Shown: positions 534 through 59,778, numbered from the stretch's first letter. The stretch: 64,000 nucleotides of DNA from an uncultured archaeon (GCA_964589775.1 CAZPUN010000023.1:2135-66134), one strand, 5' to 3'. The notes: generated from the letters alone by a model not told the origin. Numbers and translations are program-made.

Positions 534-648
534 TGGTGCGGAGGGCGAGATTTGAACTCGCGAACGCCTACGCGAGCAGATCTTGAGTCTGCCACCTATA
601 GTCGACCCCATTAATTAGGCGTCCTTGACCGGGCTTGGTTACCTCCGC
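534..648 (-). tRNA. tRNA-Leu (anticodon CAA) with a ~27-nt intron at a non-canonical position (D-arm region), CCA encoded
   Basis: Reverse complement reads GCGGAGG...CAGACTCAAGATCTG (anticodon loop CUCAAGA)...long variable arm CGCGTAGGCG...T-arm GCGAGTTCAAATCTCGC...CCTCCGCACCA. An extra ~27 nt (around ...CGCCTAATTAATGGGGTCGACTATA) lies between the D-loop and the anticodon stem (D-stem not cleanly folded by hand). Confidence 0.6.
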
Positions 649-702
649 ATTGTTTTAATGTTTTATTTTTTCAAATATAAAATTAATGGGAATGGCATAT
701 GT

Positions 703-1386
703 TTATGCATGTATGATTGTACCAATTTTTTCTCCATTTATTATTTTCAATATATTATCCGGATACTTTCCATCAAATATGATCGTTTTTATATGTGACC
801 GTCTAATGATTTCTACGGCGACCATATCAAATAGTTCATAGCTCCCAGCTTTTGAGCCTGAGTGTTCCATTAGTTTTTGAAATTCTTCTCCGGATATTTC
901 TTCTAATTTTCTGGCGCCGTTTTCATCAGGGGGTCTATCATAAACGCCATCTACATTTGTTGCATTAATCAATAAGTCTGCTTTTAATGTTTCTGCCATG
1001 ATTGCAGCAACGGCGTTTGTTGAATGCCCTGGAGTTAATCCACCCATTAAAACAATTTTTCCAGATGCAGCAAACTGCTCAAGTTCTTCGACAGTAGTTG
1101 CGATTTTTGGGTATGCAAGTTCACCCAGTGCTTCAGCTAATATCTTTGCGTTAAGGCGCGCTGCCTGAATGCCAAACTCATCGCAAATTGATTCAGGAGC
1201 CCCTAATGTTCTAGCTGCTTTTATGAACATACGTGCCGTTTTTCCGCCGCCTACGACAATTCCAATTCTATTACCTGTATCTATGATTTTTTTTATTACA
1301 TTAACGTATGTCTGAATTATTTCTGTGGAAATCGAGCCGTCATCATTATATAAAATCGAGCCTCCAATCTTAAGTACAATTCTCAT
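703..1386 (-). CDS. pyrH: uridylate (UMP) kinase
   Basis: 227 aa; KIGGS...VVGGG motifs and amino-acid kinase fold signature of archaeal UMP kinases. Confidence 0.85.
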   Translation of the reverse strand: MRIVLKIGGSILYNDDGSISTEIIQTYVNVIKKIIDTGNRIGIVVGGGKTARMFIKAARTLGAPESICDEFGIQAARLNAKILAEALGELAYPKIATTVEELEQFAASGKIVLMGGLTPGHSTNAVAAIMAETLKADLLINATNVDGVYDRPPDENGARKLEEISGEEFQKLMEHSGSKAGSYELFDMVAVEIIRRSHIKTIIFDGKYPDNILKIINGEKIGTIIHA

Positions 1387-1418
1387 AATTGTTCTACCTT
1401 GTAAAATCTTTGAAGGAA

Positions 1419-1515
1419 TGGTGGACCGTCCGGGGTTTGAACCCGGGGCTTACGGTCATTTTTGAAATGATCTCCGCCTTGCGAAGGCGGCGTGATGCCA
1501 CTTCACCAACGGCCC
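1419..1515 (-). tRNA. tRNA-Ala (anticodon CGC) with a ~21-nt intron in the variable-loop region, CCA encoded
   Basis: Reverse complement GGGCCGT..GTGAAGTGGCATCAC..CCGCCTTCGCAAGGCGG..[ATCATTTCAAAAATGACCGTA]..CCGGGTTCAAACCCCGG ACGGTCC ACCA. The G3:U70 alanine identity pair is present. The extra 21 nt sit between the anticodon stem and the T-stem. Confidence 0.6.
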
Positions 1516-1597: not shown

Positions 1598-1972
1598 TTA
1601 AATTATTCCATATCTCCATTTTCTAATGGATACGAGTGCATAGGCAAGTCCCAAGGTTACAATTCCTAAGAATCCGCCTACAATTGCTAAAACGCCGAAA
1701 TCAAGTCTGTATTGAAAGACCATCCATGAGCCCAAGAAAAGAGTAATGACATCCATTATAGCAAAAAGGATTGCGTAAATGTAATATTGATAATCAAATT
1801 GTATATGTGATGTGCCTATCGGGACTTCTCCACATTCGTATGTATCATATTTTGCTTCAGATGGGACTCCTTTTGCTCTAGTGAGCTTAGAAGCTGTAAG
1901 CATAAGAATAGCAAATAAGGTTCCTGAACCCAACAATAGAATTACAGGCAGGAATTGTTCAAATAATGTCAT
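1598..1972 (-). CDS. nuoA: NADH-quinone oxidoreductase subunit A (NuoA/ND3-like), divergent from the rest of the operon
   Basis: KYDTYECGEVPIG...FDYQYYIYAILF matches the NuoA signature. ATG at 1972; the ORF extends to a TTG at 1990. Confidence 0.75.
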   Translation of the reverse strand: MTLFEQFLPVILLLGSGTLFAILMLTASKLTRAKGVPSEAKYDTYECGEVPIGTSHIQFDYQYYIYAILFAIMDVITLFLGSWMVFQYRLDFGVLAIVGGFLGIVTLGLAYALVSIRKWRYGII

Positions 1973-2152
1973 TGCTATCACTATCCACAATAAAATATAC
2001 TTTCAATTTTAAATATTTTGTCTGATACATTTCCATAAAAATACATATTTTTAAGTCTTTAGTTTCATTTTTGTAAATTACATGTGGTAATGTTTATAAG
2101 ATTGATAACAAATTTTCTAGCACGCTACTAAAGATAATTTAGGTGAGAAATT

Positions 2153-2683
2153 ATGGCTTGGTCCTTGGAATTCATCGAATTCATTATTTTAGCAGGACTA
2201 GCTATTGCTTCTGCTATACTTACATTAGAAACCCGCGAAATTATCTATGGTCTATTCTATTTTGGAATTTTCACGATCGCTGTTGGCGGTCTTTACATAT
2301 TGCTTAACGCGGGTTATCTAGCTATGTTTCAAATGGCTATTTATGCAGGGGCAGTGGTTGTTCTTGTTTTCTTCGCAATTATGCTAGTCCGAAGAAAAGA
2401 AGGAGTTCCAATGTGTTCATATCCCAGTATAAAAACAAAAGTTGGTAGTGCAATACTTAGTATTCTTCTAATTGTATTTGTGCTTTACTTTGTATTGCAA
2501 TATCCATGGGTACAAGCAGTAACACTACCTGTTGTAGATCCCGGTGATATATTCTATGTTCTAATGAGTAATCAACTTCTATCCTTTGAACTAATAGCTG
2601 TATTATCTACAGCTACAATCATTGGTGGTGTTGCTTTGGTACGAAATGATATCGAAATTGAAGAATCTGAGGAGGGTCAATAA
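2153..2683 (+). CDS. nuoJ: NADH-quinone oxidoreductase subunit J (ND6-like)
   Basis: 176-aa polytopic membrane protein; motif MAIYAGAVVVLVFFAIML typical of NuoJ; RBS aggtga upstream. Confidence 0.7.
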   Translation: MAWSLEFIEFIILAGLAIASAILTLETREIIYGLFYFGIFTIAVGGLYILLNAGYLAMFQMAIYAGAVVVLVFFAIMLVRRKEGVPMCSYPSIKTKVGSAILSILLIVFVLYFVLQYPWVQAVTLPVVDPGDIFYVLMSNQLLSFELIAVLSTATIIGGVALVRNDIEIEESEEGQ

Positions 2684-2994
2684 TGGACATACCTCTTGAT
2701 TATTTCATTATGCTGTCGGTAATGCTCTTTGGTGTTGGTGTATACGGAGTCCTAACCAGACGAAGTATCATCCGTATGCTTATGGGCGTTGAAATTATGA
2801 TGAATGCAGCTAATATCAACTTGATTGCGTTTTCAATTTACTCATCGCCATTCAATTTGAGCGGTCAGGTACTAGCTTTATTCTCAATAGCAATTGCGGC
2901 TGCTGAAGTTGCAGTAGGTCTTGCAATACTGATTCTTGTATATCGCAATCATTCGACAATTGATGTTAGCGAGTTAAAATCTCTTAATGGGTGA
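2683..2994 (+). CDS. nuoK: NADH-quinone oxidoreductase subunit K (ND4L-like)
   Basis: 103 aa; GVEIMMNAANINLIAFS and the conserved Glu residues of NuoK/MrpC. Confidence 0.85.
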   Translation: MDIPLDYFIMLSVMLFGVGVYGVLTRRSIIRMLMGVEIMMNAANINLIAFSIYSSPFNLSGQVLALFSIAIAAAEVAVGLAILILVYRNHSTIDVSELKSLNG

Positions 2995-3449
2995 TTACTA
3001 TGGGATTAAAAAGTTGGGCAAGAAAATCATCATTATGGCCAGTCCGTTTTTGTATAGCTTGTTGTTCTACTGAAATGGCCGCTGCAATGGCATCTAGGTT
3101 TGATATGGAGCGATTCGGAGTTATGCCAATTTGGGGACCGCGCCAAGGAGATTTCCTTATGATTGCAGGATATGTCTCTAAAAAGATGGCAAAAAGATTA
3201 GTCCAAATTTATGAACAAATGCCCGAACCTCGATATGTTTTGGCACTTGGCGATTGTACGATGTCTGGTGGTCCTTATTGGGACAGTTACAATGTAATCG
3301 AAAATGTTGGTGATTTAGTCCCCATTGATGTATTTGTACCTGGATGTCCACCTAGGCCTGAAGCAATCCTGAAGGGCATTGAACTAATTCAACAAATGAT
3401 CGAAAAGGGCGAACGACCTAAAGATAAAAAGCCCGTTGTTGTTCAATAG
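2991..3449 (+). CDS. nuoB: NADH-quinone oxidoreductase subunit B (PSST, N2 cluster)
   Basis: CIACCSTEM ... GDC ... PGCPP cysteine pattern of NuoB. Confidence 0.9.
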   Translation: MITMGLKSWARKSSLWPVRFCIACCSTEMAAAMASRFDMERFGVMPIWGPRQGDFLMIAGYVSKKMAKRLVQIYEQMPEPRYVLALGDCTMSGGPYWDSYNVIENVGDLVPIDVFVPGCPPRPEAILKGIELIQQMIEKGERPKDKKPVVVQ

Positions 3450-3460
3450 GAGGGTTATCA

Positions 3461-3919
3461 GTGGCAACAAATGACGAAATTGTTCAGGTCTTAAAGGATA
3501 AATTTGGAGATAACATAAAAGAAGTTGTAACTGATGATTTCAAACATACTTATGTTACAATTTCGAGAGATATTCTAAAGGATGCTGCAAAAACAATTGC
3601 AGAAAACATGGAGAAGCCCCTTGCGGAAATGGTTGCTGTTTCTGATTTTGCGGAAAAACAAGAGTTCGAGCTTGTATATACCTTCTGGGATTATGTAGGC
3701 AAAAATCTAATTCACTTGAAGGTATATGTTCCATATTCAGATCCAGTTGTTCCATCTCTTGCATTAGACTTTCCTGCTTTAGATTGGTATGAGCGTGAAG
3801 GGCACGAGATGTTCGGTGTAAACTTTGAAGGTCATCCAAATCTTGCGCCATTATTACTTGAGGGCTTCGAAGGTGAATATCCGATGCGAAAGAGCTTTAA
3901 GTTAGAACGAAACAGGTAG
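3461..3919 (+). CDS. nuoC: NADH-quinone oxidoreductase subunit C (30 kDa)
   Basis: YEREGHEMFGVNFEGHPNLAPLLL NuoC signature. Confidence 0.85.
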   Translation: MATNDEIVQVLKDKFGDNIKEVVTDDFKHTYVTISRDILKDAAKTIAENMEKPLAEMVAVSDFAEKQEFELVYTFWDYVGKNLIHLKVYVPYSDPVVPSLALDFPALDWYEREGHEMFGVNFEGHPNLAPLLLEGFEGEYPMRKSFKLERNR

Positions 3920-3927
3920 GTGAAAAT

Positions 3928-5016
3928 ATGAAACAGCAAGTCGAAGTTTATTATGGTCCTCAGCATCCTGGAACGCATCCGTTTTCAATTCTTCTCAAGC
4001 TTGATGGTGATATCATAATTGATGCAGAGCCCAAAATAGGCTATGTTCATCGTGCTATAGAAAAATTAGCCGAGTATCGCGATTTCTATCAGAACATCCC
4101 CATTATGGAACGTGCATGTTTTCTCGAAGATCTGATTCATGAACATGGATATATGATCGCTGCAGAGAAGCTTCTGGGTGTTGAAATTCCAGAGCGCGCA
4201 GAATATTTGCGTGTTATTACTGCCGAACTAAGCCGTATTATTAGTCTTTTAATGTGGTTCAGTATGTTCGGTGGTGAAACAGGTCTTAGCACGACATTCA
4301 TGTGGGGCTTTACAGACAGAGAAAAATTACTTGATATTATGACTGAAATTACAGGTGCGCGTGTTGCATTTGCATACTTCCTACCTGGTGGTGTGCGATG
4401 GGACTTTCCTGAAGGTATTGAGGATAAGCTTAGAAAATATCTTGACTATCAAGAAGAACAACTAGATGTCTATAAAGGACTATTAATGGATAATTCAATC
4501 TTTATAGACCGTACCAAGGGTGTGGGCGTTGCAGATCCAGATACGCTCATAAAGCTTGGAGCATCCGGTCCCGTTCTTCGTGCAAGTGGATTCAAATACG
4601 ATCTTCGTGTTGATGCACCCTATGGTGTATATGATCATTTCAAGATCGATACCCCTGTTCTTCATAATGGCGACTCATATGACCGTACTATGATTCGTCT
4701 TATGGATATTAAAACAAGTATTGACATTGTCCGCCAAGCGTTAGACCAATTACCTTCAGGAGATGTACGTGTTAAAGTGCGTTCCAAGAAGAAAGCTGCA
4801 CCTGGCGCAGTATATTCTCGCGTAGAATCTGCAAGAGGTATTTTGGGCTACTATATAATTTCTAATGGAACAAACAAGCCATATCGAATTAAGATTCGTG
4901 GGCCTTCGTTCTCTCATATGTATGTATTTCCACACTTAATTCGCGGTCTTCATCTGGCTGATGTTCCTATGGTATTGGGCACATTAGACGTATGCCCTGC
5001 AGATCTGGATAGGTGA
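3928..5016 (+). CDS. nuoD: NADH-quinone oxidoreductase subunit D (49 kDa), no NiFe-binding Cys pairs
   Basis: N-terminus YGPQHPGTHP, C-terminus LGTLDVCPADLDR. The RxCGxC / DPCxxC hydrogenase motifs are absent, so this is a Nuo/Fpo-type subunit, not a hydrogenase large subunit. Confidence 0.9.
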   Translation: MKQQVEVYYGPQHPGTHPFSILLKLDGDIIIDAEPKIGYVHRAIEKLAEYRDFYQNIPIMERACFLEDLIHEHGYMIAAEKLLGVEIPERAEYLRVITAELSRIISLLMWFSMFGGETGLSTTFMWGFTDREKLLDIMTEITGARVAFAYFLPGGVRWDFPEGIEDKLRKYLDYQEEQLDVYKGLLMDNSIFIDRTKGVGVADPDTLIKLGASGPVLRASGFKYDLRVDAPYGVYDHFKIDTPVLHNGDSYDRTMIRLMDIKTSIDIVRQALDQLPSGDVRVKVRSKKKAAPGAVYSRVESARGILGYYIISNGTNKPYRIKIRGPSFSHMYVFPHLIRGLHLADVPMVLGTLDVCPADLDR

Positions 5017-5996
5017 TAGCTATGGATTTCCTGATGACATTTATCCAACTGTTCCTGTTTCCAGGCTTTACATTTGTATTGATCTCCGCATTAATGCTTA
5101 TGTACCTGGAGCGTAAAATCATTGCAAGAATGCACATGAGACGTGGTCCCTACTACGTTGGAAAGGCTGGTATCTTGCAGACACTTGCAGACTTATTGAA
5201 ATTACTCTATAAAGAAGTAATTGTTCCTAAGACTGCATCAAAATGGGTGCTGTTGGGTGTTCCAACATTAATGTTAATTCTATCATGGGCACCTCTGGCT
5301 GTAATCCCATATGATAGCTGGTATTACTTGTCCAGATTCAATGTAAGTCTCCTATTCGTATTTGCAGCATTATCAGTGTTTCCATTCTTAGGCATGTTAT
5401 TGGGTTGGGGCTCTGGAAGTAAATATTCATTAATCGGTGGTTATCGTGGAGCGTCACAGCAAATCGCTTATGAATTGCCATTGTTCCTGTCTGCATTAAT
5501 TCCTGCATTCTTCGCTGGCAGTTTAGATCTATGGGAGATTGCAGCAGCTCAATCGAAAATCTGGTTTGGCTTCCTGCATCCAATTGCAATGATCTTGTTC
5601 TTCATATCAATGTTAGCTGAACTTGAAAGAATACCATTCGATATTCCTGAGGCTGAAAGCGAACTTGTTTTCGGTTGGAAGACTGACCTTAGTGGTATTT
5701 ACTTCGGGTTCTCAATATTTGCAGGTTATACTTTATTGTTTGCAGAATCTGCATTCTTTGTCACACTATTCTTAGGCGGATGGAATGGGCCATTCTTACC
5801 CGGTTGGCTATGGTTCTTCATTAAGACATTCATTGTACTATACATAATGTTCTGGATTCGAGCTGCACAGCCCCGATACCGAATGGACCAATTACTATCA
5901 ATTAGTTGGAAGAAATTTGTACCGATTGCAATATTCAACATAATCTTGGGAGTCTTCATAATGCTATACATAGTTCCCATAATTGGAGGAATATAA
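5013..5996 (+). CDS. nuoH: NADH-quinone oxidoreductase subunit H (ND1)
   Basis: LERKIIARMHMRRGP and ELERIPFD motifs. Confidence 0.9.
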   Translation: MIAMDFLMTFIQLFLFPGFTFVLISALMLMYLERKIIARMHMRRGPYYVGKAGILQTLADLLKLLYKEVIVPKTASKWVLLGVPTLMLILSWAPLAVIPYDSWYYLSRFNVSLLFVFAALSVFPFLGMLLGWGSGSKYSLIGGYRGASQQIAYELPLFLSALIPAFFAGSLDLWEIAAAQSKIWFGFLHPIAMILFFISMLAELERIPFDIPEAESELVFGWKTDLSGIYFGFSIFAGYTLLFAESAFFVTLFLGGWNGPFLPGWLWFFIKTFIVLYIMFWIRAAQPRYRMDQLLSISWKKFVPIAIFNIILGVFIMLYIVPIIGGI

Positions 5997-6435
5997 AATG
6001 GGCAGACTTGGATTTCTAAAAAGTATGTATCTGACATTTAAGCAGTTTTTCAGAAAGCCAGTCACAGTGTTATATCCTGAAGAGCGAATTCCCGATTTCT
6101 CACGATACCGTGGAATTCACTTATTAAATATGCAAAAATGCAAGGGTTGTAACCTATGTGGTATGGCTTGTCCTAACTTTGCCATTAAAATGGTTGAGCG
6201 ACTAAATCCAAAAACTGGTAAAATGTCCAAATATCCCGAGATCAATATGGCACGTTGTATGTTCTGTGGATTATGCGAAGATGCATGTCCATTAGATTGT
6301 TTGAAGCTCGGGGGAATATATGACTTTGCAACTGATTCATTTGAAGAATTAATATTTCCCCCTGAAAAACTAGCGGAGTTATGGGAACAAAGATTCGGTA
6401 CTCCCGCATTATTAGAATCAAAATCAAATGAGTAA
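5983..6435 (+). CDS. nuoI: NADH-quinone oxidoreductase subunit I (2x[4Fe-4S] ferredoxin, TYKY)
   Basis: CKGCNLCGMACP and CMFCGLCEDACP motifs. Confidence 0.9.
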   Translation: MEEYKMGRLGFLKSMYLTFKQFFRKPVTVLYPEERIPDFSRYRGIHLLNMQKCKGCNLCGMACPNFAIKMVERLNPKTGKMSKYPEINMARCMFCGLCEDACPLDCLKLGGIYDFATDSFEELIFPPEKLAELWEQRFGTPALLESKSNE

Positions 6436-7939
6436 ACGAGGGATGATCAAAGTGATTGCATATTCATTAACACTTGCATTGGTAATACCTGCAGTATTTG
6501 CTTTAGTGATATTTGCAGGTCGTGGAAAATTAGGTAAAGCAAGTGGGATTTTAGCATCAATTTCATTATTATTCTCGGCATTTCTAATCCTTTCAAACTA
6601 TTTTGAAATTGCAAGTGCAGGAGTAGTTCAAGAGTCCTACGTCTGGTCAGACTATCTAGGGCTTACTATGGGCCTATTATTGGATTCACTAAGCTTCCCA
6701 TTAACTTCTATGATCGCCATACTTGGACTAGTAGTTTCAATTTATAGCGTTGAATACATGAAGGATGACAGTAAGAAAGAATCTTTCTTTGGTCACTTTC
6801 TGTTCTTCTACATTGGCATGTTAGGTGTTACCCTAGCAACAAACTTGTTTGAGTTCTACTTCTTCTGGGAACTCATGTTAATTCCATCATACTTCTTAAT
6901 TACAATCTGGGGAACACCTGAGCGTGCAAGAAAAATTGGTGTGAAATACTTCCTATTCACTCATGTTGGAGCACTTGCAATGCTTATTGGTATTGCATTT
7001 ACTTATGCACATGCTGGCACTTTCGATATTGCTGCGATTCCTGCAGCTCTAGCTGGTTTGGATGTCTCAATTACATTACCTATATTTGTATTGTTTGTAA
7101 TTGGGTTCGCTGTTAAAATGGCAATATTTCCGTTCCACACATGGTTGCCAGATGCACATGGTGAAGCACCCACACCAATCAGCGTTTTGCTTAGTGGTGT
7201 CATGATCGAAACAGCTGGATATGCACTTTTGCGAATTGCAGCAGCTTTCTATCCCAATGCATATCAACTTAGCTCATTCTGGTTAATGACATTCTCCGTG
7301 ATCACAATGATTTACGGCGGAATGATGGCACTTGTTCAAACAGATATCAAAAGATTGCTTGCATATAGCAGTGTTAGCCAGATGGGCTATGTAATGTTTG
7401 GCTTATCTTCTGCAACATTACTTGGTGTCATTGGTGGTATGTTCCATATAGTTGTACATGCACTAGGAAAGGGTATACTCTTTATGACTGCAGGAGTTGT
7501 AATGCATCAAGCTCATCACTTACGAGACTTGACAAAAATGGGTGGTCTGGGTAGAAAAATGCCAAAGACTGCTGTTATTGCATTCATCGCTGCATTAAGT
7601 TTAGCAGGAACTCCTCCACTTGGTGGATTTGTAAGTGAATTCTTCATATTCTCAGGTGGTTTGACCTCTGTTATTGCTTACGGTACAACTCTGGCATATG
7701 TGATCGGTGCATTTGCATTATTGAGCTCCATACTCTCTGCAGCTTATATGCTTAGATTACTATGGAAAGTATTTCTAGGTCCAACTCCAGAGCACTTGAA
7801 TGATGTGAAAGACCCCTCAATATTAATGTGGGGCTCCATGGCAGTATTGGCTATTCTAACCGTGGGCTTTGGTTTATTCCCAGGCTTAATGGTAGATATC
7901 ATCAGCCATTCTGCGCATGCGCTCTTAAACATTCCATAG
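6428..7939 (+). CDS. additional NuoM/NuoN(MrpD)-family antiporter-like subunit
   Basis: 503-aa polytopic protein with the WLPDAHGEAPTP motif of the NuoM/N/MrpD family. It sits between nuoI and nuoL. Confidence 0.75.
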   Translation: MSKRGMIKVIAYSLTLALVIPAVFALVIFAGRGKLGKASGILASISLLFSAFLILSNYFEIASAGVVQESYVWSDYLGLTMGLLLDSLSFPLTSMIAILGLVVSIYSVEYMKDDSKKESFFGHFLFFYIGMLGVTLATNLFEFYFFWELMLIPSYFLITIWGTPERARKIGVKYFLFTHVGALAMLIGIAFTYAHAGTFDIAAIPAALAGLDVSITLPIFVLFVIGFAVKMAIFPFHTWLPDAHGEAPTPISVLLSGVMIETAGYALLRIAAAFYPNAYQLSSFWLMTFSVITMIYGGMMALVQTDIKRLLAYSSVSQMGYVMFGLSSATLLGVIGGMFHIVVHALGKGILFMTAGVVMHQAHHLRDLTKMGGLGRKMPKTAVIAFIAALSLAGTPPLGGFVSEFFIFSGGLTSVIAYGTTLAYVIGAFALLSSILSAAYMLRLLWKVFLGPTPEHLNDVKDPSILMWGSMAVLAILTVGFGLFPGLMVDIISHSAHALLNIP

Positions 7940-7952
7940 GTGGTGGTACAGA

Positions 7953-10025
7953 ATGATCTTGGATTACTCTCCTATCCTGATATTCATGGTACCTTTAGTA
8001 GGTGCATTATTGGTACCTTTAGTTGGAAAATTACCAAGAAAAATCCTTGAAGGATATGCTATTACTGTAGCATTGATTTCTGCATTTCTTGGAGTCTATA
8101 TGTTACCATGGGCCATTGGTATGCAGCATCCCATTGTCATTCGGTTCGACTGGTTACCTGAATTTGGAATCAGTTTGGGCGTATACGCAGATCAACTTAG
8201 TCTATTCATGGCTGCAATGGTCTCATTTGTAAGCTCATTAATTGTAATTTACAGCAAGGACTACATGGCTGGAGACGAAGCATATGTCCGATATTACTTC
8301 TTCATATTGTTCTTCATTGGAAATATGCTCGGTCTAATTATGGCTGAAAACTTAGTATTGCTCTTCATGTTCTGGGAAGGCGTAGGTCTTTGCAGTTATG
8401 GACTCATTGGTTTCTGGAATAAAGATAATGAGAATGTACGCAGTGGTACTAAAGCATTCATAGTCACCCGTGCAGGTGATGTAGGTCTTCTTGCTGGAAT
8501 TATCATTATCTATCTACAAACTCATACACTTAGCTTTGTAGAGATGGAAGAAAATATTGGTGCTTTTGCCCAAGCACTTGGTGGCTCTATTACTTTGGTA
8601 GGGCTATTGTTATTCGCCGGTGCTGTTGGTAAATCCGCACAGTTTCCATTGAATATCTGGCTTCCTGAGGCTATGGCTGGTCCTACAACGGTATCTGCAT
8701 TAATTCATGCTGCTACAATGGTAAAAGCTGGTGTATATCTAATTGCCCGATTCTTGCCGATCTTCTTTGAAATAAAGGAGATTCTTATTGGCGGAATTGC
8801 TGCCTATGCATTGCAAGTAGAAAATATGTTTACTGTAATCGCTTGGGTTGGTGTATTCACCGCATTTATGGCAGGCTCTATGGGCATGGCTGCACGTGAG
8901 CTCAAGAAGGTTCTTGCATTCTCAACAGTCAGCCAACTTGGATACATGATGATGGGACTCGGCGTAGCTGGATTAATGATGGAAAGCACCGAAGGATATT
9001 TCGCATCTGTATTTCATATGACTGCCCACATGCTATTCAAGGCACTCTTATTCTTATCTGCGGGTGCCGTCATTCACGCAGTGCATACAAAAGATATGTT
9101 TGAAATGGGTGGTCTAAAGGATAAGATGCCCCTAACATACAAAGTGATGCTTATTGGTGCGTTATCTCTATCTGGTATTCCTCCGCTTGCCGGTTTCTTC
9201 AGCAAAGAGACACTATTTGATGTTGTCTGGATTTATGCTGGTGAAGTTGGAACCATGGGTCTCATAATGTTCATCATTGCTGTAGTTGCTGCAATATTCA
9301 CATTCTTCTACAGCTTGAGAATGATTGGCGTTGTCTTCTTTGGAAAACCAAGTGAAATTGTTGAAGAGCACCATGCACATGATCCTCATATCTACATGAA
9401 ATTCTCCTTAGTTGTACTTGCTGCATTAACTTTAATCAGTGGATTCTTTGGACCATGGATCGAAGCCTACTTAATTCCAAGTGTTCATATGCCCGGTGTT
9501 ATTGATGGCCTTATGATGCTGTTTGGTAAAGTATTTACACCAATCAGTATGATGGTCTTGGGTACAATCTTAGTTGTAGGCGGTGTTCCGGGATACTTCA
9601 TATATATCAAGCGTAGTTGGAACGCAGAAAAGATTGGTAAATCAAAGCTTCACACCTTCCTATACAACCGCTGGTATTGGAATACAATTCTCGTCAAAAT
9701 ATTTGTCAATGGATTCCATGCCTTATCTCGTGGTATCTTTAATACCTTTGAAAAGGCTCTAGATAAACTAAATGATGCCATTGTCAGTGGTAACATAAAG
9801 TTATCTCATGGTATGGAGAAATTTGATAGAAAAGGCGTGGATGGTGTGGTCAATGGCATTGTATCTGCAAGTGTTGCAGGTTCAAAAGCTGTTGATAAGA
9901 CACAGACCGGTAACGCACAAACCTACCTGCAGGTTGGCTTAATCGGTCTTGTAATACTGTTAATAACATTGTCGTTGATACTTAACGACCAAATTACATT
10001 CTTAATTCAATGGCTGGTGAGCTAA
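7953..10025 (+). CDS. nuoL: NADH-quinone oxidoreductase subunit L (ND5/MrpA-like)
   Basis: 690 aa; WLPEAMAGPTTVSALIHAATMV motif and the long C-terminal extension typical of NuoL. Confidence 0.85.
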   Translation: MILDYSPILIFMVPLVGALLVPLVGKLPRKILEGYAITVALISAFLGVYMLPWAIGMQHPIVIRFDWLPEFGISLGVYADQLSLFMAAMVSFVSSLIVIYSKDYMAGDEAYVRYYFFILFFIGNMLGLIMAENLVLLFMFWEGVGLCSYGLIGFWNKDNENVRSGTKAFIVTRAGDVGLLAGIIIIYLQTHTLSFVEMEENIGAFAQALGGSITLVGLLLFAGAVGKSAQFPLNIWLPEAMAGPTTVSALIHAATMVKAGVYLIARFLPIFFEIKEILIGGIAAYALQVENMFTVIAWVGVFTAFMAGSMGMAARELKKVLAFSTVSQLGYMMMGLGVAGLMMESTEGYFASVFHMTAHMLFKALLFLSAGAVIHAVHTKDMFEMGGLKDKMPLTYKVMLIGALSLSGIPPLAGFFSKETLFDVVWIYAGEVGTMGLIMFIIAVVAAIFTFFYSLRMIGVVFFGKPSEIVEEHHAHDPHIYMKFSLVVLAALTLISGFFGPWIEAYLIPSVHMPGVIDGLMMLFGKVFTPISMMVLGTILVVGGVPGYFIYIKRSWNAEKIGKSKLHTFLYNRWYWNTILVKIFVNGFHALSRGIFNTFEKALDKLNDAIVSGNIKLSHGMEKFDRKGVDGVVNGIVSASVAGSKAVDKTQTGNAQTYLQVGLIGLVILLITLSLILNDQITFLIQWLVS

Positions 10026-11477
10026 ATGGAGCTAGGACTAATATCAATACTCTTACTAATTCCCTTGATTGCCGCCGTAATTGACTATGCTGGCGGTGTG
10101 AAGTCTCCCAAATTTGCCAAGTACTTTGCAATACTCACCACGACAGTAGTATTCATCTATAGCATGTATTTCCTTATGGTGTTTGATCCTACTAATGGTG
10201 GTATGCAGCTAATAGAAAGTTATGAATGGATGCCTGCATTTGGATTAACATTCTCTGTTGGTCTTGATGGCATAAGTCTTCCATTACTATTGTTGGGTAC
10301 CTTCATGACTATGATTGCAACAGCTGCATCACCTTGGATGATTCACCATCATGAAGCAGAATATTATGGATTGATGCTATTATTTGAAGTAGGACTGTTA
10401 GGTGTCTTTGTCAGCACAAATCTAGTATTGTTCTATGTGTTCTGGGAGCTAGTCCTAGTTCCCATGTTCTTCATGATTGCAATTTGGGGAGGCCCTACAA
10501 GAAAATATGCTGCAATGAAATTCTTCATCTTTACGCATGTAGGTAGTGTGTTGATGCTTGTCAGTATCATGGGCTTTTACTTCTTCTCAAGTCCTCATAC
10601 TTTCAACATTCTACAATTATCCAATGTATTTCCAGCTGATTTGCAGTTCTGGCTTGCATTGGGTATATTCTTCGGTGCTGCATTCAAGCTACCTGCAGTC
10701 CCCTTCCATACATGGTTACCCGACGCACATGTGCAAGCCCCCAGTCCTGCAAGTGTACTACTTGCCGGTGTTCTGCTTAAGATGGGTGGTTATGCATTCA
10801 TTCGTCTTGGTATCGGCTTAGTTCCTCAAGGTATGCTACAACTTGCACCATTCCTTGCGATCATGGGTGTGATCGGTGTATTCTATGCTGCTTATGCGGC
10901 AATGGGTCAAAAGGACATGAAGAAATTAATTGCATTTTCAAGTATTAACCACATGAGCTTTGTACTACTTGGTGTTGCTGCCGGTACTGTAATGGGTATA
11001 GTTGGTGCAGTATTCCAAATGGTCAGCCATGGTGTAATCATCGGTATGCTCTTCCTTATTGCTGGAATAATTCAGCATCATGCGGGTACTCGTGATATTC
11101 CAGTGCTTAAGGGACTTGGCAATTCACTACCAAAGCTTAGTCTTCTATTAATATTTGCATCATTTGCATCATTTGCTGCTCCACCGTTAAGCGGTTTCAT
11201 TGCTGAATTAACTGTATTAATTGCAGCGTTAGTTGTATTCCCACAAATTTGGATTACTGTATTTGGTGCTGCAGTTACCACTGGTCTTTTCCTGTGGCTG
11301 ATTATTAGAACCATTTACAGTGAGCCTGATGAGCATACTGTGAAAGTATCTCCTATTAGCAAATGGGAGTTACTTCCTGTTGCAATCTTAGTAATACCAA
11401 TTGTCCTGCTGGGTCTATTCCCAGGGCTCTTGTTCGAATTGATCAAGGCTACTGCAGGACTGTTAGCGTTTAGGTAA
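10026..11477 (+). CDS. nuoM: NADH-quinone oxidoreductase subunit M (ND4)
   Basis: 483 aa; WLPDAHVQAPSPASVLLAGVLLKMGGY motif. Confidence 0.8.
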   Translation: MELGLISILLLIPLIAAVIDYAGGVKSPKFAKYFAILTTTVVFIYSMYFLMVFDPTNGGMQLIESYEWMPAFGLTFSVGLDGISLPLLLLGTFMTMIATAASPWMIHHHEAEYYGLMLLFEVGLLGVFVSTNLVLFYVFWELVLVPMFFMIAIWGGPTRKYAAMKFFIFTHVGSVLMLVSIMGFYFFSSPHTFNILQLSNVFPADLQFWLALGIFFGAAFKLPAVPFHTWLPDAHVQAPSPASVLLAGVLLKMGGYAFIRLGIGLVPQGMLQLAPFLAIMGVIGVFYAAYAAMGQKDMKKLIAFSSINHMSFVLLGVAAGTVMGIVGAVFQMVSHGVIIGMLFLIAGIIQHHAGTRDIPVLKGLGNSLPKLSLLLIFASFASFAAPPLSGFIAELTVLIAALVVFPQIWITVFGAAVTTGLFLWLIIRTIYSEPDEHTVKVSPISKWELLPVAILVIPIVLLGLFPGLLFELIKATAGLLAFR

Positions 11478-11480
11478 GAG

Positions 11481-12908
11481 GTGACGATAATGGCTGCAGA
11501 ATATCTATCTCTTATGCCGTTTATCACATTGTTCGGATTTGCATTAGTTTCACTTATATTCGGTGGTATCAGGAAATGTAAGATTGCTATCGGCTGGTCT
11601 GCAGTAGGTGTAATCTTAGCATTCTGGCAAACATTATTTGGTGGGTACTTTAATGGTGCCCATCTATTCGATGATACAATAGTAATGGATGCTTTCTCCC
11701 AATTCTTTGTACTACTCTTCCTTGGTGTTGCATTTTTGATCTTAGTAGCTGCACCATACGAAATGAAAGCACGACCTGAGTTTGCTGCTTTAGTCTTGAT
11801 TGCAACGATCGGTATGTCTATGGTTGCACTTGCAAACGATTTATTGGTGCTATTTGTATCATGGGAACTAATGAGCATATCAACATACGCTTTGGCTGCT
11901 CTTGGAAAAGACAAAAAGTCCACTGAAGGTGGTATCAAATACTACCTTTACGGTATCGTTGCATCTGGTTTCATTTTGTACGCTATCTCATTGCTATATG
12001 GTATCACCGGTACTACAAATCTTACTGCAATTGTTAATTTCGTTGCAGCAAATGGTAATTTAGCTTTACCTGTCGTAGGTCTCAGTGCATTCATATTCAT
12101 ATTGGGCTTTGGATACAAGATGGGTGTTGTTCCCTTCCATATGTGGATTCCAGATGCATATGAAGGCGCGCCGTCTGTAATTGCAGGTCTGCTAGCTGGT
12201 GGCTCAAAGAAAGCAAGCATCGCTGCTATGTTCAGAATAATCGTTGCTGCATTACTTGTAATTAACTTTGGCTGGACATTTACGATTGCAATAATCGCTA
12301 CAATCACCATGACCTTTGGAAACTTCTTAGCTTTGAGTGAACCAAAAGTTTCCAGAATGCTTGCATATTCCTCAATCACACAAGTTGGATACATATTAAT
12401 TGGTCTTGCAATTGCAACTACAATTGGAGTAGCAGGTGCACTATTCCAAGCTCTCACACATGCCGTCATGAAAAGTGCTGCCTTTATTGCTGCCGGAGTT
12501 GTTATTTACAAACTATCCTTAAAAACAGTGGATGACTATAATGGTTTAGTAAAGCGCATGAAGTTTGTATCCTTTGCATTGGCTATAATGTTGTTATCTC
12601 TCGCTGGTGTTCCACCGCTCGCTGGATTTATCAGTAAGTTCATTCTTTTCTCGGCAGCAGTTGATGCCGGACTTGTTTGGCTGGCCGTTGTCGGAGTGCT
12701 TAACAGTGCATTCTCCTTAGGTTATTATCTGCGTTTGATCAAAAACATGTTCGTAGAAGATGCACCTGAGGATGCTACGCCTGTCAAGGTTCCCTATGGA
12801 GTCACTATTTCATTAGCTCTTGCAGTAATTGTAATCATAGTTATGGGAATCTATCCCGCACCATTCTATGACTACATAATTCGTGCTGCACAAAGTATAA
12901 TTCCGTAA
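11481..12908 (+). CDS. nuoN: NADH-quinone oxidoreductase subunit N (ND2)
   Basis: 475 aa; WIPDAYEGAPSVIAGLLAGGSK motif; last gene, followed by a T-rich terminator. Confidence 0.8.
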   Translation: MTIMAAEYLSLMPFITLFGFALVSLIFGGIRKCKIAIGWSAVGVILAFWQTLFGGYFNGAHLFDDTIVMDAFSQFFVLLFLGVAFLILVAAPYEMKARPEFAALVLIATIGMSMVALANDLLVLFVSWELMSISTYALAALGKDKKSTEGGIKYYLYGIVASGFILYAISLLYGITGTTNLTAIVNFVAANGNLALPVVGLSAFIFILGFGYKMGVVPFHMWIPDAYEGAPSVIAGLLAGGSKKASIAAMFRIIVAALLVINFGWTFTIAIIATITMTFGNFLALSEPKVSRMLAYSSITQVGYILIGLAIATTIGVAGALFQALTHAVMKSAAFIAAGVVIYKLSLKTVDDYNGLVKRMKFVSFALAIMLLSLAGVPPLAGFISKFILFSAAVDAGLVWLAVVGVLNSAFSLGYYLRLIKNMFVEDAPEDATPVKVPYGVTISLALAVIVIIVMGIYPAPFYDYIIRAAQSIIP

Positions 12909-17975: not shown

Positions 17976-18417
17976 TAATTGATGATAATTGCTTATTATC
18001 CGTGGCGGCGGATAAATGCGCTAAGTGTGCAGGCGCAAAGAGCACGAAACGAAGAGTTTAAGTGCAAATGTTGTGCCTGTTCTGTATGCAAATTATGTCC
18101 GCTTCGGATATGTATATGCAAATATAATGAAAACGCCACGAGTTCGGCAAGATGTGCCGAATACGTAGGTCCGGACGTGGGCTGCATAGCCTGGGATGAT
18201 GGACTGAATTCCAAGCGTGGCGATAATAGATGCGGACTCAAGAAAACGGGTATGAAAAATACTCGGAACCTTGAGATCTAAGATACGCTCAAAGATGTAC
18301 ATTGAAGGGTCAATGTGCCCGTCAATTCCCTAAATTGACATGAAAGGGCCAGTACTTCAAGTAAACATCCTGTGCAGGTGCTGCACGATATCCTCCCTTG
18401 CCAGGAGCGTGCAGCGA

Positions 18418-19919
<1,502 letters not shown>

Positions 19920-19984
19920 TTGAGTATTGATGAGGAGTAAATCTCCTCAGCCCTAATGTCAGGGCACAAACCCTTGTACATCTT

Positions 19985-20020
19985 TGAGCGGCCTGATTTA
20001 CTTTTTGATTTTTATGAAAT
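19985..20020 (+). terminator. T-rich tract downstream of the 16S rRNA
   Basis: Sequence gatttactttttgatttttatg. Confidence 0.3.
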
Positions 20021-26093: not shown

Positions 26094-26426
26094 ATGATGG
26101 AATTAAGTATGTTACTGCAGGTAAATATTATAATACTTGCAGCACTATGTTTCATTGGGGTATTATACTTACTAGCGCGTAAAATGGCGCCTCCACCAAG
26201 AACTTCTGGTGCTGCAGTTGAGCCGTATGGCTCAGGTGAAAAAGTAAAAATTGGAAAGCTAAAGTTCAGGGCACAAATGCTGAATTTTGTATTCATGTTT
26301 ATTGTATTTGAGTCGTTGATATTATCAATTCTTGCATGGCAAGTAAATCCACTTGCTGTTAGTGTATATCTAATTGTGACCCTGTTCGCATTGCTTGCTA
26401 CAAAGCAATGTACTACAGTTTGTTAG
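26094..26426 (+). CDS. NuoA-like small membrane subunit (second complex-I-like module)
   Basis: VEPYGSGE...FIVFESLILSILAW follows the NuoA pattern (PYECG..FDxE..FLFPWA) in divergent form. Confidence 0.55.
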   Translation: MMELSMLLQVNIIILAALCFIGVLYLLARKMAPPPRTSGAAVEPYGSGEKVKIGKLKFRAQMLNFVFMFIVFESLILSILAWQVNPLAVSVYLIVTLFALLATKQCTTVC

Positions 26427-26429
26427 GAG

Positions 26430-26882
26430 TTGATATTAGTGGTTCTTGCAAAAATTGCAAAATGGGCTAGGTTAAAGTCACCTTGGGTTATCCACATGAA
26501 TAGTGGTAGCTGTAATGGGTGTGATATTGAAATAGTAGCGGCATTGACTCCTCGTTATGATCTTGAACGCTTTGGTGTCAAATTAATGGGTAGTCCTAGG
26601 CACGCAGATATTATGCTTCTTACTGGTACTATGACTGCACAGGCTAGAGAACGAGCAATTCGTGTTTATGAGCAGATGGCCGAGCCAAAGTTTGTTGTTG
26701 CAATTGGAAGTTGCGCTTTAAGTGGCGGTGTTTTTGCAGGTAGTTACAATACATTAAAAGGAGCCGATAAAGCTTTACCAATTGCTGCGTATGTGCCTGG
26801 TTGTCCACCTAAGCCTGAAGCAATTATTCAAGCCGTAGCAGCCCTATTAGAAAAGCTCGAAAAAGGTGAAAGCAATGAGTGA
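26430..26882 (+). CDS. NuoB-like / group-4 [NiFe]-hydrogenase-type small subunit
   Basis: GSCNGCDIEI ... GSC ... PGCPPKPE. The four proximal-cluster Cys ligands are arranged as in Mbh/Ech/Hyc small subunits rather than the CCxxE arrangement of NuoB. Confidence 0.8.
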   Translation: MILVVLAKIAKWARLKSPWVIHMNSGSCNGCDIEIVAALTPRYDLERFGVKLMGSPRHADIMLLTGTMTAQARERAIRVYEQMAEPKFVVAIGSCALSGGVFAGSYNTLKGADKALPIAAYVPGCPPKPEAIIQAVAALLEKLEKGESNE

Positions 26883-27354
26883 TCAAAATTTAGCAGCTGA
26901 AAATGAAATAGTATCCATGCTGAAGAAATATTTGGGTGACGACTTAAAGGACATTAATATTCAGCGTCGCCATAGAGTGTGGGCTGAGATTCCCGTTTCA
27001 AAACTAAGAGATACACTCCAATTCTTAATTGATAATCGCAACTTGTACTATTTATCCACGATAAGTGGAGTTGACATGAAAGATCATTTTGAAATGCTAT
27101 ATCATTTGTTCTTGCATGAAGATAAGATTGAGTTGACCCTTACAGTAAAATTACCCCATGATAACCCTTCAGTCCCCACGATTATTGATCTATTCCCTGG
27201 TGCTGATATGGCTGAACGTGAAGCACATGAAATGTTTGGTATTAATATTGAGGGTCGTGATGAAGAACTAAAGCATGTGGAACTTCCAGATACGTGGCCC
27301 GAAGGTCAATATCCACTCAGAAAGGATTGGAGTGGAAATAATGAGGAAGCCTGA
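26866..27354 (+). CDS. NuoC-like (30 kDa) subunit
   Basis: AEREAHEMFGINIEG...LPDTWPEGQYPLRKDW. Confidence 0.75.
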   Translation: MKAMSDQNLAAENEIVSMLKKYLGDDLKDINIQRRHRVWAEIPVSKLRDTLQFLIDNRNLYYLSTISGVDMKDHFEMLYHLFLHEDKIELTLTVKLPHDNPSVPTIIDLFPGADMAEREAHEMFGINIEGRDEELKHVELPDTWPEGQYPLRKDWSGNNEEA

Positions 27355-27364
27355 GGTGAAGTAA

Positions 27365-28417
27365 ATGGAGATTATTATGGAATCCCTTATGTTTTTCTTG
27401 CAAGTATTGATATTTCCCGGAATATTCTTCCTGACATTTGTTGCTCTATTGTGGGAATGGGTAGACCGTAAATTTTACGCTAAATTACAGAATAGAGTAG
27501 GGCCTTATTTCACAGGTAAGAAAGGGTTCCTACAGCCTCTTGCCGATTTCTTAAAATTATTGTCTAAGGAAGATCTAACTCCTGAACAGAGTAACAAGCG
27601 TGGGTTCAAAGCAGCTCCAATTGTAATCGCAATTACAATTCTATTCTTATTGATGTTTATACCCATCACTGGTGCAAAAGGAATTATTTCATTTGAAGGC
27701 GACCTTCTATTTGTTTTGTTTGGGTCTTCATTGATCATGGCTGTAATTATGCTTTCTGGATGGTTTTCATCAAGTCCTTTTGCTATTGCGGGTGGTACTC
27801 GTACCGGATTGCTTATGATTGCTTATGAATTGCCATTAATTATTTCCTTACTAACTCCTGCAGTTATCGTCGGCAGTCTAAATATATCCACAATTATCAC
27901 GTATCAACTAACTCACGGCTTACCATTTATTGCAATATTTCCAATAATGTTTGGATTTATAATTTATGTCATCGCATTAGAAGCAGAACTAGAACGAGTG
28001 CCATTCGATGTTTCACATGCTGAAACTGAAATTGTTGCAGGTTGGAAAGTAGAATATTCTGGTAAAAAACTGGCATTGCTCTCGATGGTTTCAGATCTCG
28101 AACTAGTGTTTGGCGCAGGTATTGCAACAGCTATATTCTTAGGCGGCCCCTTCTTGTTTGAATTTATTCCACTTGATTGGGCTCAGTCTATTGCTACTCT
28201 TGCGGCTACCACATACTTTGGATTACTGTATTATCCTCTAGTATTCCTGTTCAAGTCTTTCTTGATAATATTAATACTAAGCTTGTTTAGAGCTCTAATG
28301 GCTCGTCTAAGAATTGACCAAATTATAAATGCGTCATGGAAAATTTTACTTCCTCTGGCAATTTTGGTGCTATTACTAGTACATTTGCCGAGTGTATTAG
28401 CATTATGGGGGCTATAA
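27365..28417 (+). CDS. NuoH-like membrane subunit
   Basis: VGPYFTGKKGFLQPLADFLKLL and AELERVPFD motifs. It directly follows the NuoC-like gene, with no NuoD-like gene between. Confidence 0.8.
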   Translation: MEIIMESLMFFLQVLIFPGIFFLTFVALLWEWVDRKFYAKLQNRVGPYFTGKKGFLQPLADFLKLLSKEDLTPEQSNKRGFKAAPIVIAITILFLLMFIPITGAKGIISFEGDLLFVLFGSSLIMAVIMLSGWFSSSPFAIAGGTRTGLLMIAYELPLIISLLTPAVIVGSLNISTIITYQLTHGLPFIAIFPIMFGFIIYVIALEAELERVPFDVSHAETEIVAGWKVEYSGKKLALLSMVSDLELVFGAGIATAIFLGGPFLFEFIPLDWAQSIATLAATTYFGLLYYPLVFLFKSFLIILILSLFRALMARLRIDQIINASWKILLPLAILVLLLVHLPSVLALWGL

Positions 28418-28418
28418 T

Positions 28419-28787
28419 ATGTGTCCAGTTCCTGGTAAGATGATTGGTGAATTGCTAAGGCATGCTTTCAAGAAGAGCGCAACAACTTCATATCCTTTGT
28501 CAAAGGATGAAGTCAATATTCCCCAAGATTTACGTGGCAAATGGGAATTGTATTTGGACAAATGTATTGGATGTAGTCTGTGTGAGCGCGTATGTCCATC
28601 ATTTGCCATAGTCATGGTTGAATGCCGTGAGGGTGAAACTACAAAGACAGGAAAGCGTCCAATTTGCCACATTGATAAATGTGTATTTTGCGCTCAATGT
28701 GAAGAGACATGTCCAACAAAAGCAATAAAATTAACACAAAACTTTGAGCTCGCGTTATTCAATCGTGAGAATGGCGTAATTGAGTAA
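28419..28787 (+). CDS. NuoI-like 2x[4Fe-4S] ferredoxin subunit
   Basis: CIGCSLCERVCP and CVFCAQCEETCP. Confidence 0.8.
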   Translation: MCPVPGKMIGELLRHAFKKSATTSYPLSKDEVNIPQDLRGKWELYLDKCIGCSLCERVCPSFAIVMVECREGETTKTGKRPICHIDKCVFCAQCEETCPTKAIKLTQNFELALFNRENGVIE

Positions 28788-29812: not shown

Positions 29813-30190
29813 TTGTCAACGAGAAATGAAATACTCTTAAATATACTCAAGGAACTTGAAAAAAGCTCACGTGGTCAAGTTGAAGCAAGTGCTATTATAT
29901 CCACACAAGGACTTCCTATTAGTTCTGCAAATCTAGATAATGTAGATGAAGGTGTAGTTGCAGCTATGGCTGCTGCAATTCTTGCAGTATCAGAGCGCGC
30001 TACAGCAGAGTTAAATCGCGGGCAGTTCAATAGAGTCCTTGTAGAAGGCGAGAATGGTTACATAATTATTGCTGGTGCGGGTTCTGAAGCAATTCTTGTA
30101 GTTTTGGCAAATAAAAAAGCCAATCTCGGATATATCTTCTTAATTATGACTCGATTAAGTACCGAAATTGAAAAAACCTTAAGAGAATAA
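29813..30190 (+). CDS. Roadblock/LC7 (MglB-like) domain protein
   Basis: 125 aa; pattern GLPISS...VAAMAAAIL...VLVEGENGYIIIAGAG typical of the roadblock family. Confidence 0.6.
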   Translation: MSTRNEILLNILKELEKSSRGQVEASAIISTQGLPISSANLDNVDEGVVAAMAAAILAVSERATAELNRGQFNRVLVEGENGYIIIAGAGSEAILVVLANKKANLGYIFLIMTRLSTEIEKTLRE

Positions 30191-33619: not shown

Positions 33620-34579
33620 CTACATATTTTCACCCATAAGTATTTTTGCGACCTCTCTCAGTTTATCTAATCCTCTCACTTCTTCTGGAAATAATGGCAC
33701 TTGAATTATCTCGAAATCACTATATAATTCCAATATGTCCTTTAGGTTTCTCTGCTGCATATTATATCGTGCGGTACAAAATGGGCATGATGGATTTTCT
33801 GGGTATACCATATTTATTACAATGTGATTTGCTGGAATCATGTATTCATTTAGTGCAGAAATGAGGCGATCTGTTTCAAAAACAGACATTGCTTCCGGAA
33901 TCATCACTATTACAAATGATGTTGTTTTTGGGTCTGTTAGTTCCGCACGTGCAATTGTAATTCGTCGTTTCATTTCTTGAAGCATTTCTAATGAATTATC
34001 TTCTTGGTCATCATACGAACCGAACATTCGCTTGATTGCTGAAAATGCGGATGAAAGTCTCATTCTAAATGTAATTAATTTTCCAACCCAACTATCTAAC
34101 ATCTCGGGTAATGAGAGCAATCTCAATGTATGGCCCGTAGGTGCGGTATCAAAAACAATTCTATCAAATTGTGGATTTTCTATGAATTCTAGAACTTTTG
34201 CAAAAGCCATAGCTTCATCAGAGCCCGGTGGGGTTAATGATGTTAAATCTTCAAAACCTGGAAGTTGAATTTGATTATCCATTTGCATTGAAAGATAACT
34301 TCGAGTTTCCTCTAATGCTTTTTCTGTATTTAATTCAAGTCCATATAGATTTGGTACTCCTTCTACCGGAATTATTTCGCCACCGGACAAATCTTGATCT
34401 AAGCTATCACTTAAGCTATGTGCCGGATCTGTACTAAGGACTAAAGTCCTAAATCCTAATTCTGCGGATCGTATCGCAATTGCTGATGCCGTGGATGTTT
34501 TTCCAACGCCGCCTTTACCACCTGCGAAAATAAATCGAATATTTTCATTTGTTATAATGTCTGCTAAAGTCATCATCAT
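33620..34579 (-). CDS. ArsA/Get3-family anion-transporting ATPase homologue
   Basis: FAGGKGGVGKTSTASA deviant Walker A (P-loop), DTAPTGHTLRLL switch II, and a CPFC pair. Confidence 0.85.
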   Translation of the reverse strand: MMMTLADIITNENIRFIFAGGKGGVGKTSTASAIAIRSAELGFRTLVLSTDPAHSLSDSLDQDLSGGEIIPVEGVPNLYGLELNTEKALEETRSYLSMQMDNQIQLPGFEDLTSLTPPGSDEAMAFAKVLEFIENPQFDRIVFDTAPTGHTLRLLSLPEMLDSWVGKLITFRMRLSSAFSAIKRMFGSYDDQEDNSLEMLQEMKRRITIARAELTDPKTTSFVIVMIPEAMSVFETDRLISALNEYMIPANHIVINMVYPENPSCPFCTARYNMQQRNLKDILELYSDFEIIQVPLFPEEVRGLDKLREVAKILMGENM

Positions 34580-40549: not shown

Positions 40550-40882
40550 TTATACATACTCTTTAAGTCTAGCAACTGCTTGATCGAATTCTCCTTTGGA
40601 AGTTACTATTGGGACCTCTCCATAGTTTGGCATACCTTTTGTAATTTCCTCTATTAGATATTCTAATGCAAGTTTTGTGTCGAGTTCCCGTGTCTCTAAT
40701 GTGAGGTCTGGAAATGTCAAGGAAGCTTCAGTCCATTTTTCTCTCTTTTCATCAGTTGGGAATAATGCATATAGATAGTCTTCAGTACTAATAATTACAC
40801 TCGGTGTGTTTTCCCACGCTTTCGCCATAAGAGCTGCCATATCTTTAGCATTTTGTGCTTTATCCGCCATAAGTGTCACCAT
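40550..40882 (-). CDS. hypothetical protein (110 aa)
   Basis: ORF only; no recognisable family. Confidence 0.3.
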   Translation of the reverse strand: MVTLMADKAQNAKDMAALMAKAWENTPSVIISTEDYLYALFPTDEKREKWTEASLTFPDLTLETRELDTKLALEYLIEEITKGMPNYGEVPIVTSKGEFDQAVARLKEYV

Positions 40883-55690: not shown

Positions 55691-55705
55691 GAGGTGACTA
55701 GGCTA

Positions 55706-56289: not shown

Positions 56290-56301
56290 GGAGGCTAGGT
56301 T

Positions 56302-58248: not shown

Positions 58249-58259
58249 GAGGTGCAGAG

Positions 58260-59774: not shown

Positions 59775-59778
59775 ATAA

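Follow-up and report, generated by a model that had tools for sequence, protein, structure and literature searches.

The tRNA-splicing endonucleases (EndA) of archaea differ in architecture. The α4 enzyme of the Methanocaldococcus type is a homotetramer of a single subunit of ~170–180 aa that lacks a specificity loop. The α′2 enzyme of the Archaeoglobus/Thermoplasma type is a two-unit polypeptide of about 290–340 aa, and the ε2 enzyme of the ARMAN-2 type is a single three-unit polypeptide. Non-canonical tRNA introns with bulge-helix-bulge (BHB) motifs were reportedly described for Crenarchaeota and the TACK group by Marck and Grosjean in 2003 and by Sugahara et al. in 2008.

Position 45/46 and positions in the D-loop are among the known tRNA intron sites (PMC4090602). 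Cleavage of introns in the D-loop, away from the canonical site, and of relaxed introns is conferred by a loop of the endonuclease called CSL or L1 and by the lysine it carries (Hirata et al. 2011, PMC3241643). The enzyme of A. fulgidus hardly cut a strict BHB set in the D-loop, whereas CSL-bearing enzymes did (PMC3241643). M. kandleri, which has a heterotetrameric EndA without L1 that cuts relaxed motifs poorly, harbours an HBh′ intron at 20b/21 of tRNA-Glu (Kaneta et al. 2018). [quoted passage not shown] 2018, PMC5829648). The association of off-site introns with an L1-bearing (αβ)2 EndA is therefore already known from this group (Kaneta et al. 2018).

The locus described here fits the published picture, in which loop insertions of EndA and the diversity of tRNA introns co-evolved at the root of the TACK and Asgard archaea, and it leaves the current understanding unchanged. 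What it adds are two well-defined and conserved off-site introns, at 21/22 and 45/46, and a matching L1-loop subunit, in an Asgard lineage represented by three assemblies. Both inserts are very likely BHB introns at non-canonical sites, cut most likely by an (αβ)2 endonuclease whose α subunit is the EndA encoded in the same window, that is, the whole 64-kb stretch of DNA that was analysed.

Two tRNA genes with off-site inserts

The tRNA-Leu(CAA) gene occupies positions 534–648 on the minus strand (read from 648 to 534) and comprises 115 nt, including an encoded CCA. A sequence-only reading of this DNA had already placed the gene there and credited it with about 27 extra nucleotides, a claim that can now be sharpened: the insert is a 27-nt intron (598–624, minus strand) between nucleotides 21 and 22 (A21/A22), at the boundary of D-loop and D-stem, and it separates exon 1 (625–648) from exon 2 (534–597). 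The junctions come from a BHB scan that searched the precursors of both tRNAs for a 4-bp helix with 3-nt bulges on opposite strands. Its top solution for tRNA-Leu is a strict hBHBh′ motif, with h of 2 bp, H of 4 bp and h′ of 3 + 2 bp. The central helix is GGUC/GACU, in which GGUC corresponds to G18-G19-U20-C20a of the D-loop. The bulges are AA/G and AU/A (the slash marks the predicted splice site), the intron helix is GAC.CC/GG.GUC, and a 2-bp helix lies on the exon side. Excision of the intron yields an 88-nt tRNA-Leu(CAA) with a perfect cloverleaf and a long variable arm, as folded by ARAGORN. By chance, a BHB formed at this junction in 0.2% of 200,000 trials with shuffled introns. Constrained folding of the precursor gave −42.1 kcal/mol for the BHB conformer and −46.2 kcal/mol for the predicted minimum free energy (MFE), and this distance of 4 kcal/mol was counted against the splicing explanation.

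The tRNA-Ala(CGC) gene is found at 1419–1515, also on the minus strand (read from 1515 to 1419), and measures 97 nt with its encoded CCA. It had been said to carry about 21 extra nucleotides in the region of the variable loop, and the intron delimited here is in good agreement with that estimate. It is 22 nt long (1450–1471, minus strand), lies in the variable loop between nucleotides 45 and 46 (G45/G46), and separates exon 1 (1472–1515) from exon 2 (1419–1449). Among the top-scoring solutions of the BHB scan, the one whose excision restores the cloverleaf was chosen. Its central helix is formed by GCGG, nucleotides 40–43 of the anticodon stem, and CCGU; the bulges are AG/A and AA/G, and the intron hairpin h′ has 6 bp (UCAUUU/AAAUGA). 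Because the 3′ bulge is closed on the exon side by a single G-C pair, the motif is regarded as relaxed and HBh′-like. This exon-side helix of 1 bp and the requirement that the all-GC anticodon stem be opened were both counted against the splicing explanation. Once the intron is removed, ARAGORN recognises a 75-nt tRNA-Ala(CGC) with a perfect cloverleaf, a G3:U70 pair and a 5-nt variable loop, AGGCC. A BHB at this junction arose in 0.02% of 200,000 shuffled-intron trials. The constrained folding energies of the precursor were −40.1 kcal/mol for the BHB, −40.8 kcal/mol for the predicted MFE and −36.8 kcal/mol with the anticodon stem enforced. For the Ala and Leu precursors alike, the BHB conformers are thus predicted to be energetically accessible.

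With sites at 21/22 and 45/46 in the BHB scan, neither intron is located at 37/38, which bears out the sequence-only reading. The further expectation that BHB motifs, and not merely long loops or arms, would be found at the junctions is supported by the scan, by the cloverleaves that ARAGORN recovers after excision and by the pairing in relatives discussed below. The two introns resemble the BHB introns of Crenarchaeota, other TACK archaea and Asgard archaea in being short (21–27 nt), in lying away from 37/38, in combining 3-nt bulges with a 4-bp helix, and in being either strict or HBh′. They differ from these known cases in being fresh instances from a rare and deep Asgard lineage.

Both genes are preceded on the minus strand by a promoter-like box that sequence comparison shows to be kept in two close relatives. 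The box CCCATTAATTTTATATTT (673–690) ends ~25 nt upstream of tRNA-Leu, and the box CTTCACAAAATTTTTAAT (1543–1560) is situated ~28 nt upstream of tRNA-Ala. These AT-rich elements, ~25–35 nt upstream of the tRNAs, resemble archaeal BRE/TATA promoters, which suggests that each tRNA may be its own transcription unit.

The ease with which the two genes are recognised differs between tools. The Rfam tRNA model finds tRNA-Ala with 54 bits at 1422–1515 and treats 23 extra nucleotides after position 45 as an insertion. It finds tRNA-Leu with 46 bits at 537–648, with a 35-nt insertion in the D-loop, but only if the search is confined to 1.5 kb of sequence. When the whole window was scanned, tRNA-Leu was lost to the speed filters, and at the E-value threshold only a "tmRNA" of 16.7 bits appeared. 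A default ARAGORN run found tRNA-Ala and missed tRNA-Leu; with the intron option, the Leu gene was called a "tRNA-Ala(cgc) with 40-nt intron", which was rejected as an artefact. Standard finders thus miss or mis-call such genes, and the tRNA sets of metagenome-assembled genomes (MAGs) will look incomplete unless the tools are aware of BHB motifs. No further tRNA was detected in the 64-kb window by whole-window Rfam scans, a T-arm/acceptor scan or ARAGORN with introns allowed.

The splicing endonuclease

The endA gene (40938–41498, minus strand) encodes a protein of 186 aa with two Pfam domains, PF02778 and PF01974, and a match to TIGR00324. It had been taken for a catalytic-type subunit of about this size, which is upheld by both domains, by the Y-H-K triad and by its α-chain relatives. 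The best match in the PDB is the α chain of the (αβ)2 enzyme of A. pernix (3p1z_B, 5e-51), followed by the (αβ)2 α chains of S. tokodaii (2cv8, 3e-40) and P. aerophilum (2zyz_B, 3e-35); the α4 enzyme of M. jannaschii (1a79) is matched at 7e-22. The similarity to the A. pernix α subunit (PDB 3P1Z/3AJV; Hirata et al. 2011) extends from end to end and includes the length of 186 aa and the two-domain structure. Y124, H132 and K163 align with the catalytic residues Y125, H133 and K164, while R156 and W183 align with R157 and W183. The L1/CSL loop reads G38-I-R-K41-P-K43 (GIRKPK), and its K41-P-K43 aligns with K44-P-R46 of A. pernix, so that K41 takes the place of the loop lysine K44. The two proteins differ in that A. 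pernix has R46 where K43 is found here.

The Y-H-K triad, R156, W183 and the G-I-R-K-P-K loop are invariant in 40 Asgard homologs. The alignment with the M. kandleri unit shows a 10-residue gap exactly at the L1 loop. M. kandleri is similar in having a D-loop intron one position away from the Leu site and a heterotetramer, the architecture also predicted for the enzyme of the window, and dissimilar in that its EndA is without the L1 present in the window's α subunit (Kaneta et al. 2018). The nearest named homologs of the protein belong to Hel-, Thor-, Loki- and Odinarchaeota, at ~55–61% identity, which identifies the organism as an Asgard archaeon. On its sequence features, the 186-aa EndA can be classified as an L1-bearing α subunit of the (αβ)2 kind of TACK and Asgard archaea.

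Two other architectures were considered for this protein and rejected. An ε2 enzyme is incompatible with a single unit of 186 aa, compared with the 395-residue 4fz2 chain, to which the protein is a distant match (4fz2_A, 4e-14). The length of 186 aa also speaks against α′2, and the NCBIfam two-unit models match through the C-terminal unit only, far below their cut-offs.

That this is the only endA in the window, as previously stated, was confirmed with an α-family HMM and with Pfam. The HMM, applied to 376 six-frame ORFs, detected no second EndA-like ORF (best non-self E 0.34, a search that a divergent β subunit could escape), and a Pfam search of 10 unannotated ORFs of the window yielded no match. 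A PDB search with a C-terminal fragment as query returned no crenarchaeal β subunit. Crenarchaeal β subunits are very divergent, and weak β homologs could therefore be missed; even the β subunit of M. kandleri, which is α-like, matches that of A. pernix only at E = 0.19 in a PDB search. The affinity of the protein to α chains and its specificity loop fit a separate structural subunit elsewhere, in accordance with Kaneta et al. 2018. From the literature and these affinities, a structural β subunit would be expected to be encoded at another place in the genome. The second option raised by the sequence-only reading, an unusual enzyme, has found no support.

A small gene directly downstream of endA was considered as a candidate for the missing partner. 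This 110-aa ORF (40553–40882, minus strand) has no Pfam match. As a small β subunit it was rejected, since its HHalign probability against the α family is <1%, and its fold is not EndA-like either: the confident AlphaFold2 model (pLDDT 90) has an α-β4-α-α arrangement, and the folds it matches best, though weakly, are those of MRP1/2 and Pur-alpha, which bind nucleic acids, and not that of EndA. A word-index search for homologs returned the ORF's own cluster only, and an exhaustive HMMER search revealed a small family of ~100-aa proteins. The ORF is more conserved than its neighbour, with 95% identity in a relative compared with 89% for EndA. The order PhoU_div, EndA and ORF is kept in a further genome (L128), where the ORF homolog is 54% identical, and is lost in the more distant homologs examined. 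Elsewhere, homologs of the ORF sit near genes for Zn-ribbon/CdvA-like and Band_7 proteins.

These results bear on the possibility that the lineage has no canonical β subunit and uses either an α-only enzyme, an α4-like homotetramer equipped with L1, or an α subunit with a non-homologous partner. Such an enzyme would constitute a fifth EndA architecture handling relaxed, off-site introns. It is favoured by the single EndA-type gene in the 64-kb window and by the α subunit itself, which has the N-terminal as well as the C-terminal domain of a complete unit, and the size of the protein fits α4. Set against this are the L1 loop and the closest solved relatives, which are α chains of heterotetramers and not α4 subunits, as well as the occurrence of (αβ)2 in 4/4 Asgard genomes (Kaneta et al. 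2018, PMC5829648). Also counted against it is that the neighbouring ORF (40553–40882) resembles EndA neither by profile nor by fold, and that its more distant homologs are no longer linked to endA. An enzyme without a canonical β subunit is accordingly considered to have only a slim chance of being correct.

The preferred explanation, splicing by an (αβ)2 enzyme, implies the following course of events. Each tRNA gene would be transcribed from its own promoter, and the precursor would fold locally so that the splice sites come to lie in 3-nt bulges with a 4-bp helix between them. This helix would be built on G18-G19-U20-C20a of the D-loop in tRNA-Leu, and in tRNA-Ala it would borrow nucleotides 40–43 of the anticodon stem. 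The splicing endonuclease would then cut each bulge between its second and third nucleotides, and the exons would be joined by an RtcB-type ligase, of which no gene was seen among the annotated ORFs of the window. The endonuclease is envisaged as an (αβ)2 heterotetramer assembled from the 186-aa EndA and a β subunit from elsewhere in the genome, and the lysine-bearing L1/CSL loop may enable it to accept off-site and relaxed motifs. The gene anatomy, the BHB geometry, their conservation in relatives and the features of the α subunit are observed directly, and the cleavage and ligation of the Leu and Ala precursors, the existence of a β subunit and the assembly of the heterotetramer are inferred.

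Conservation in close relatives

The pyrH gene, which encodes uridylate kinase, lies between both tRNA genes and was used as a guide to related genomes. Two close PyrH homologs, 81% and 78% identical, come from GCA_053940065.1 (L121) and an ENA scaffold (L124). Identity drops to ~57% in the next matches, and those that have a name carry the label Thorarchaeota. In the two close relatives the genes likewise follow the order tRNA-Ala, pyrH, tRNA-Leu and HTH gene; the L121 sequence reaches further upstream and also shows nuo genes ahead of tRNA-Ala. A PyrH protein search of a genome-contig collection yielded no relatives, and a scan of JGI metagenomes for orthologs of tRNA-Ala recovered no organism other than this one (L127, 99.96% identical). 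The lineage is a rare and deep branch of the Asgard archaea, with three genomes carrying these introns in the collections searched.

Both introns occur at the same sites in the two relatives as in the window. The Leu exons are identical at 88/88 positions in the three genomes, while the intron differs in ~10 of its 27 columns. Both relatives have the same Leu helices as the window, apart from a C.A mismatch in their central helix, which was counted against the splicing explanation.

This mismatch also touches on the question of whether a narrow-specificity endonuclease would suffice, with L1 irrelevant to both substrates. The strict hBHBh′ motif of the window's tRNA-Leu would be in keeping with such an enzyme. 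The Ala motif, which is without a real exon-side helix, and the relatives' tRNA-Leu, with its mismatch in the 4-bp helix, speak against it, and even a strict BHB in the D-loop was hardly cut by the A. fulgidus EndA, although CSL-bearing enzymes cut it (PMC3241643). A narrow enzyme therefore appears very improbable, and an L1-bearing (αβ)2 endonuclease remains the preferred reading.

In tRNA-Ala, the three genomes agree at 72/75 exon positions and differ at 3, while the intron measures 21, 22 or 26 nt. The intron-side strand of the central helix reads CCGU, CCGC or CUGU, and each of these pairs with GCGG. One compensatory change, from U-A to C-G, is found in the intron hairpin among the three genomes. 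Taken together, the pairing of the introns is kept despite sequence drift, through one compensatory pair and several one-sided changes that preserve pairs, in a sample of three sequences for which the statistics are weak.

It is extremely improbable that the inserts are retained, in pseudogenes or in tRNAs whose D-loop and variable region are aberrantly long, as the Rfam model might suggest by absorbing the extra bases as insertions, since the exons are strongly constrained (Leu 88/88, Ala 72/75) while the inserts diverge, the BHB lies exactly at the junctions that restore the cloverleaf, substitutions leave the pairing intact, the relatives keep the promoter-like boxes upstream, and tRNA-Ala is a class I tRNA, a class with a variable loop of 4–5 nt.

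The D-loop site in other archaea

A pattern search at the DNA level for insert-bearing tRNA-Leu genes across GTDB produced 119 matches, of which 36 with real inserts were used. The other 83 were removed as false positives; they were ordinary intronless thaumarchaeal tRNA-Leu genes, picked up because the last element of the pattern matched the variable arm. Five tRNA-Leu genes from Bathyarchaeota and Brockarchaeota (L022, L030, L032, L105 and L042) carry introns of 12–19 nt directly after GGUCAA, which is the site used in the window. Their central helix is GGUC/GACC in L022, L032, L042 and L105, and GGUC with GAUU in L030. Judged from these sequences, the D-loop site after GGUCAA looks like a recurrent hot spot of insertion.

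A tRNA-Leu(CAA) gene of Heimdallarchaeota bin6 (CP070695.1, L071; match at 1328–1410, minus strand) has a 3′ half nearly identical to that of the window's gene. Its insert of ~48 nt follows the D-arm and is not at 21/22, and no strict BHB solution was found for it. The 21/22 site is hence not fixed across Asgard archaea. Since the Bathyarchaeota and Brockarchaeota share the site and this Heimdallarchaeon differs, the site appears to be recurrent and intron positions labile within the Asgard archaea. The placement in Heimdallarchaeota bin6 suggests intron sliding or turnover within the Asgard archaea.

A contig labelled "Candidatus Dormiibacterota bacterium" (DASPWZ010000049.1) carries an archaeal-type tRNA-Leu(CAG) with a 36-nt insert flanked by a BHB. 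The contig is probably archaeal and was placed in the wrong bin.

Other features of the window

The 16S rRNA gene (18418–19919) has no adjoining 23S gene. Its flanks at 18286–18301 and 19975–19990 form a perfect 16-bp processing stem, beyond which follow a 5′ bulge of 3–4 nt, 5–6 bp, an internal loop and 6–7 bp. A scan found no strict BHB in this processing stem; some archaea without a 16S BHB are known (PMC12918454, 2026).

Membrane gene clusters that resemble respiratory complexes are apparently present three times, at 1598–12908, 26094–28787 and 55388–61308. The first, adjoining the tRNA genes, is a full nuo-like operon according to Pfam matches on the syntenic relative. The other two, assigned by eye from translations only, look like a smaller NuoA/B/C/H/I-like set and an Mrp/NuoL-M-N-like set. 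Further genes of the window encode a Roadblock/LC7 protein (29813–30190, plus strand), an ArsA/Get3-like ATPase (33620–34579, minus strand) and an RNA cytosine methyltransferase of the RsmB/F type (45804–46793, plus strand).
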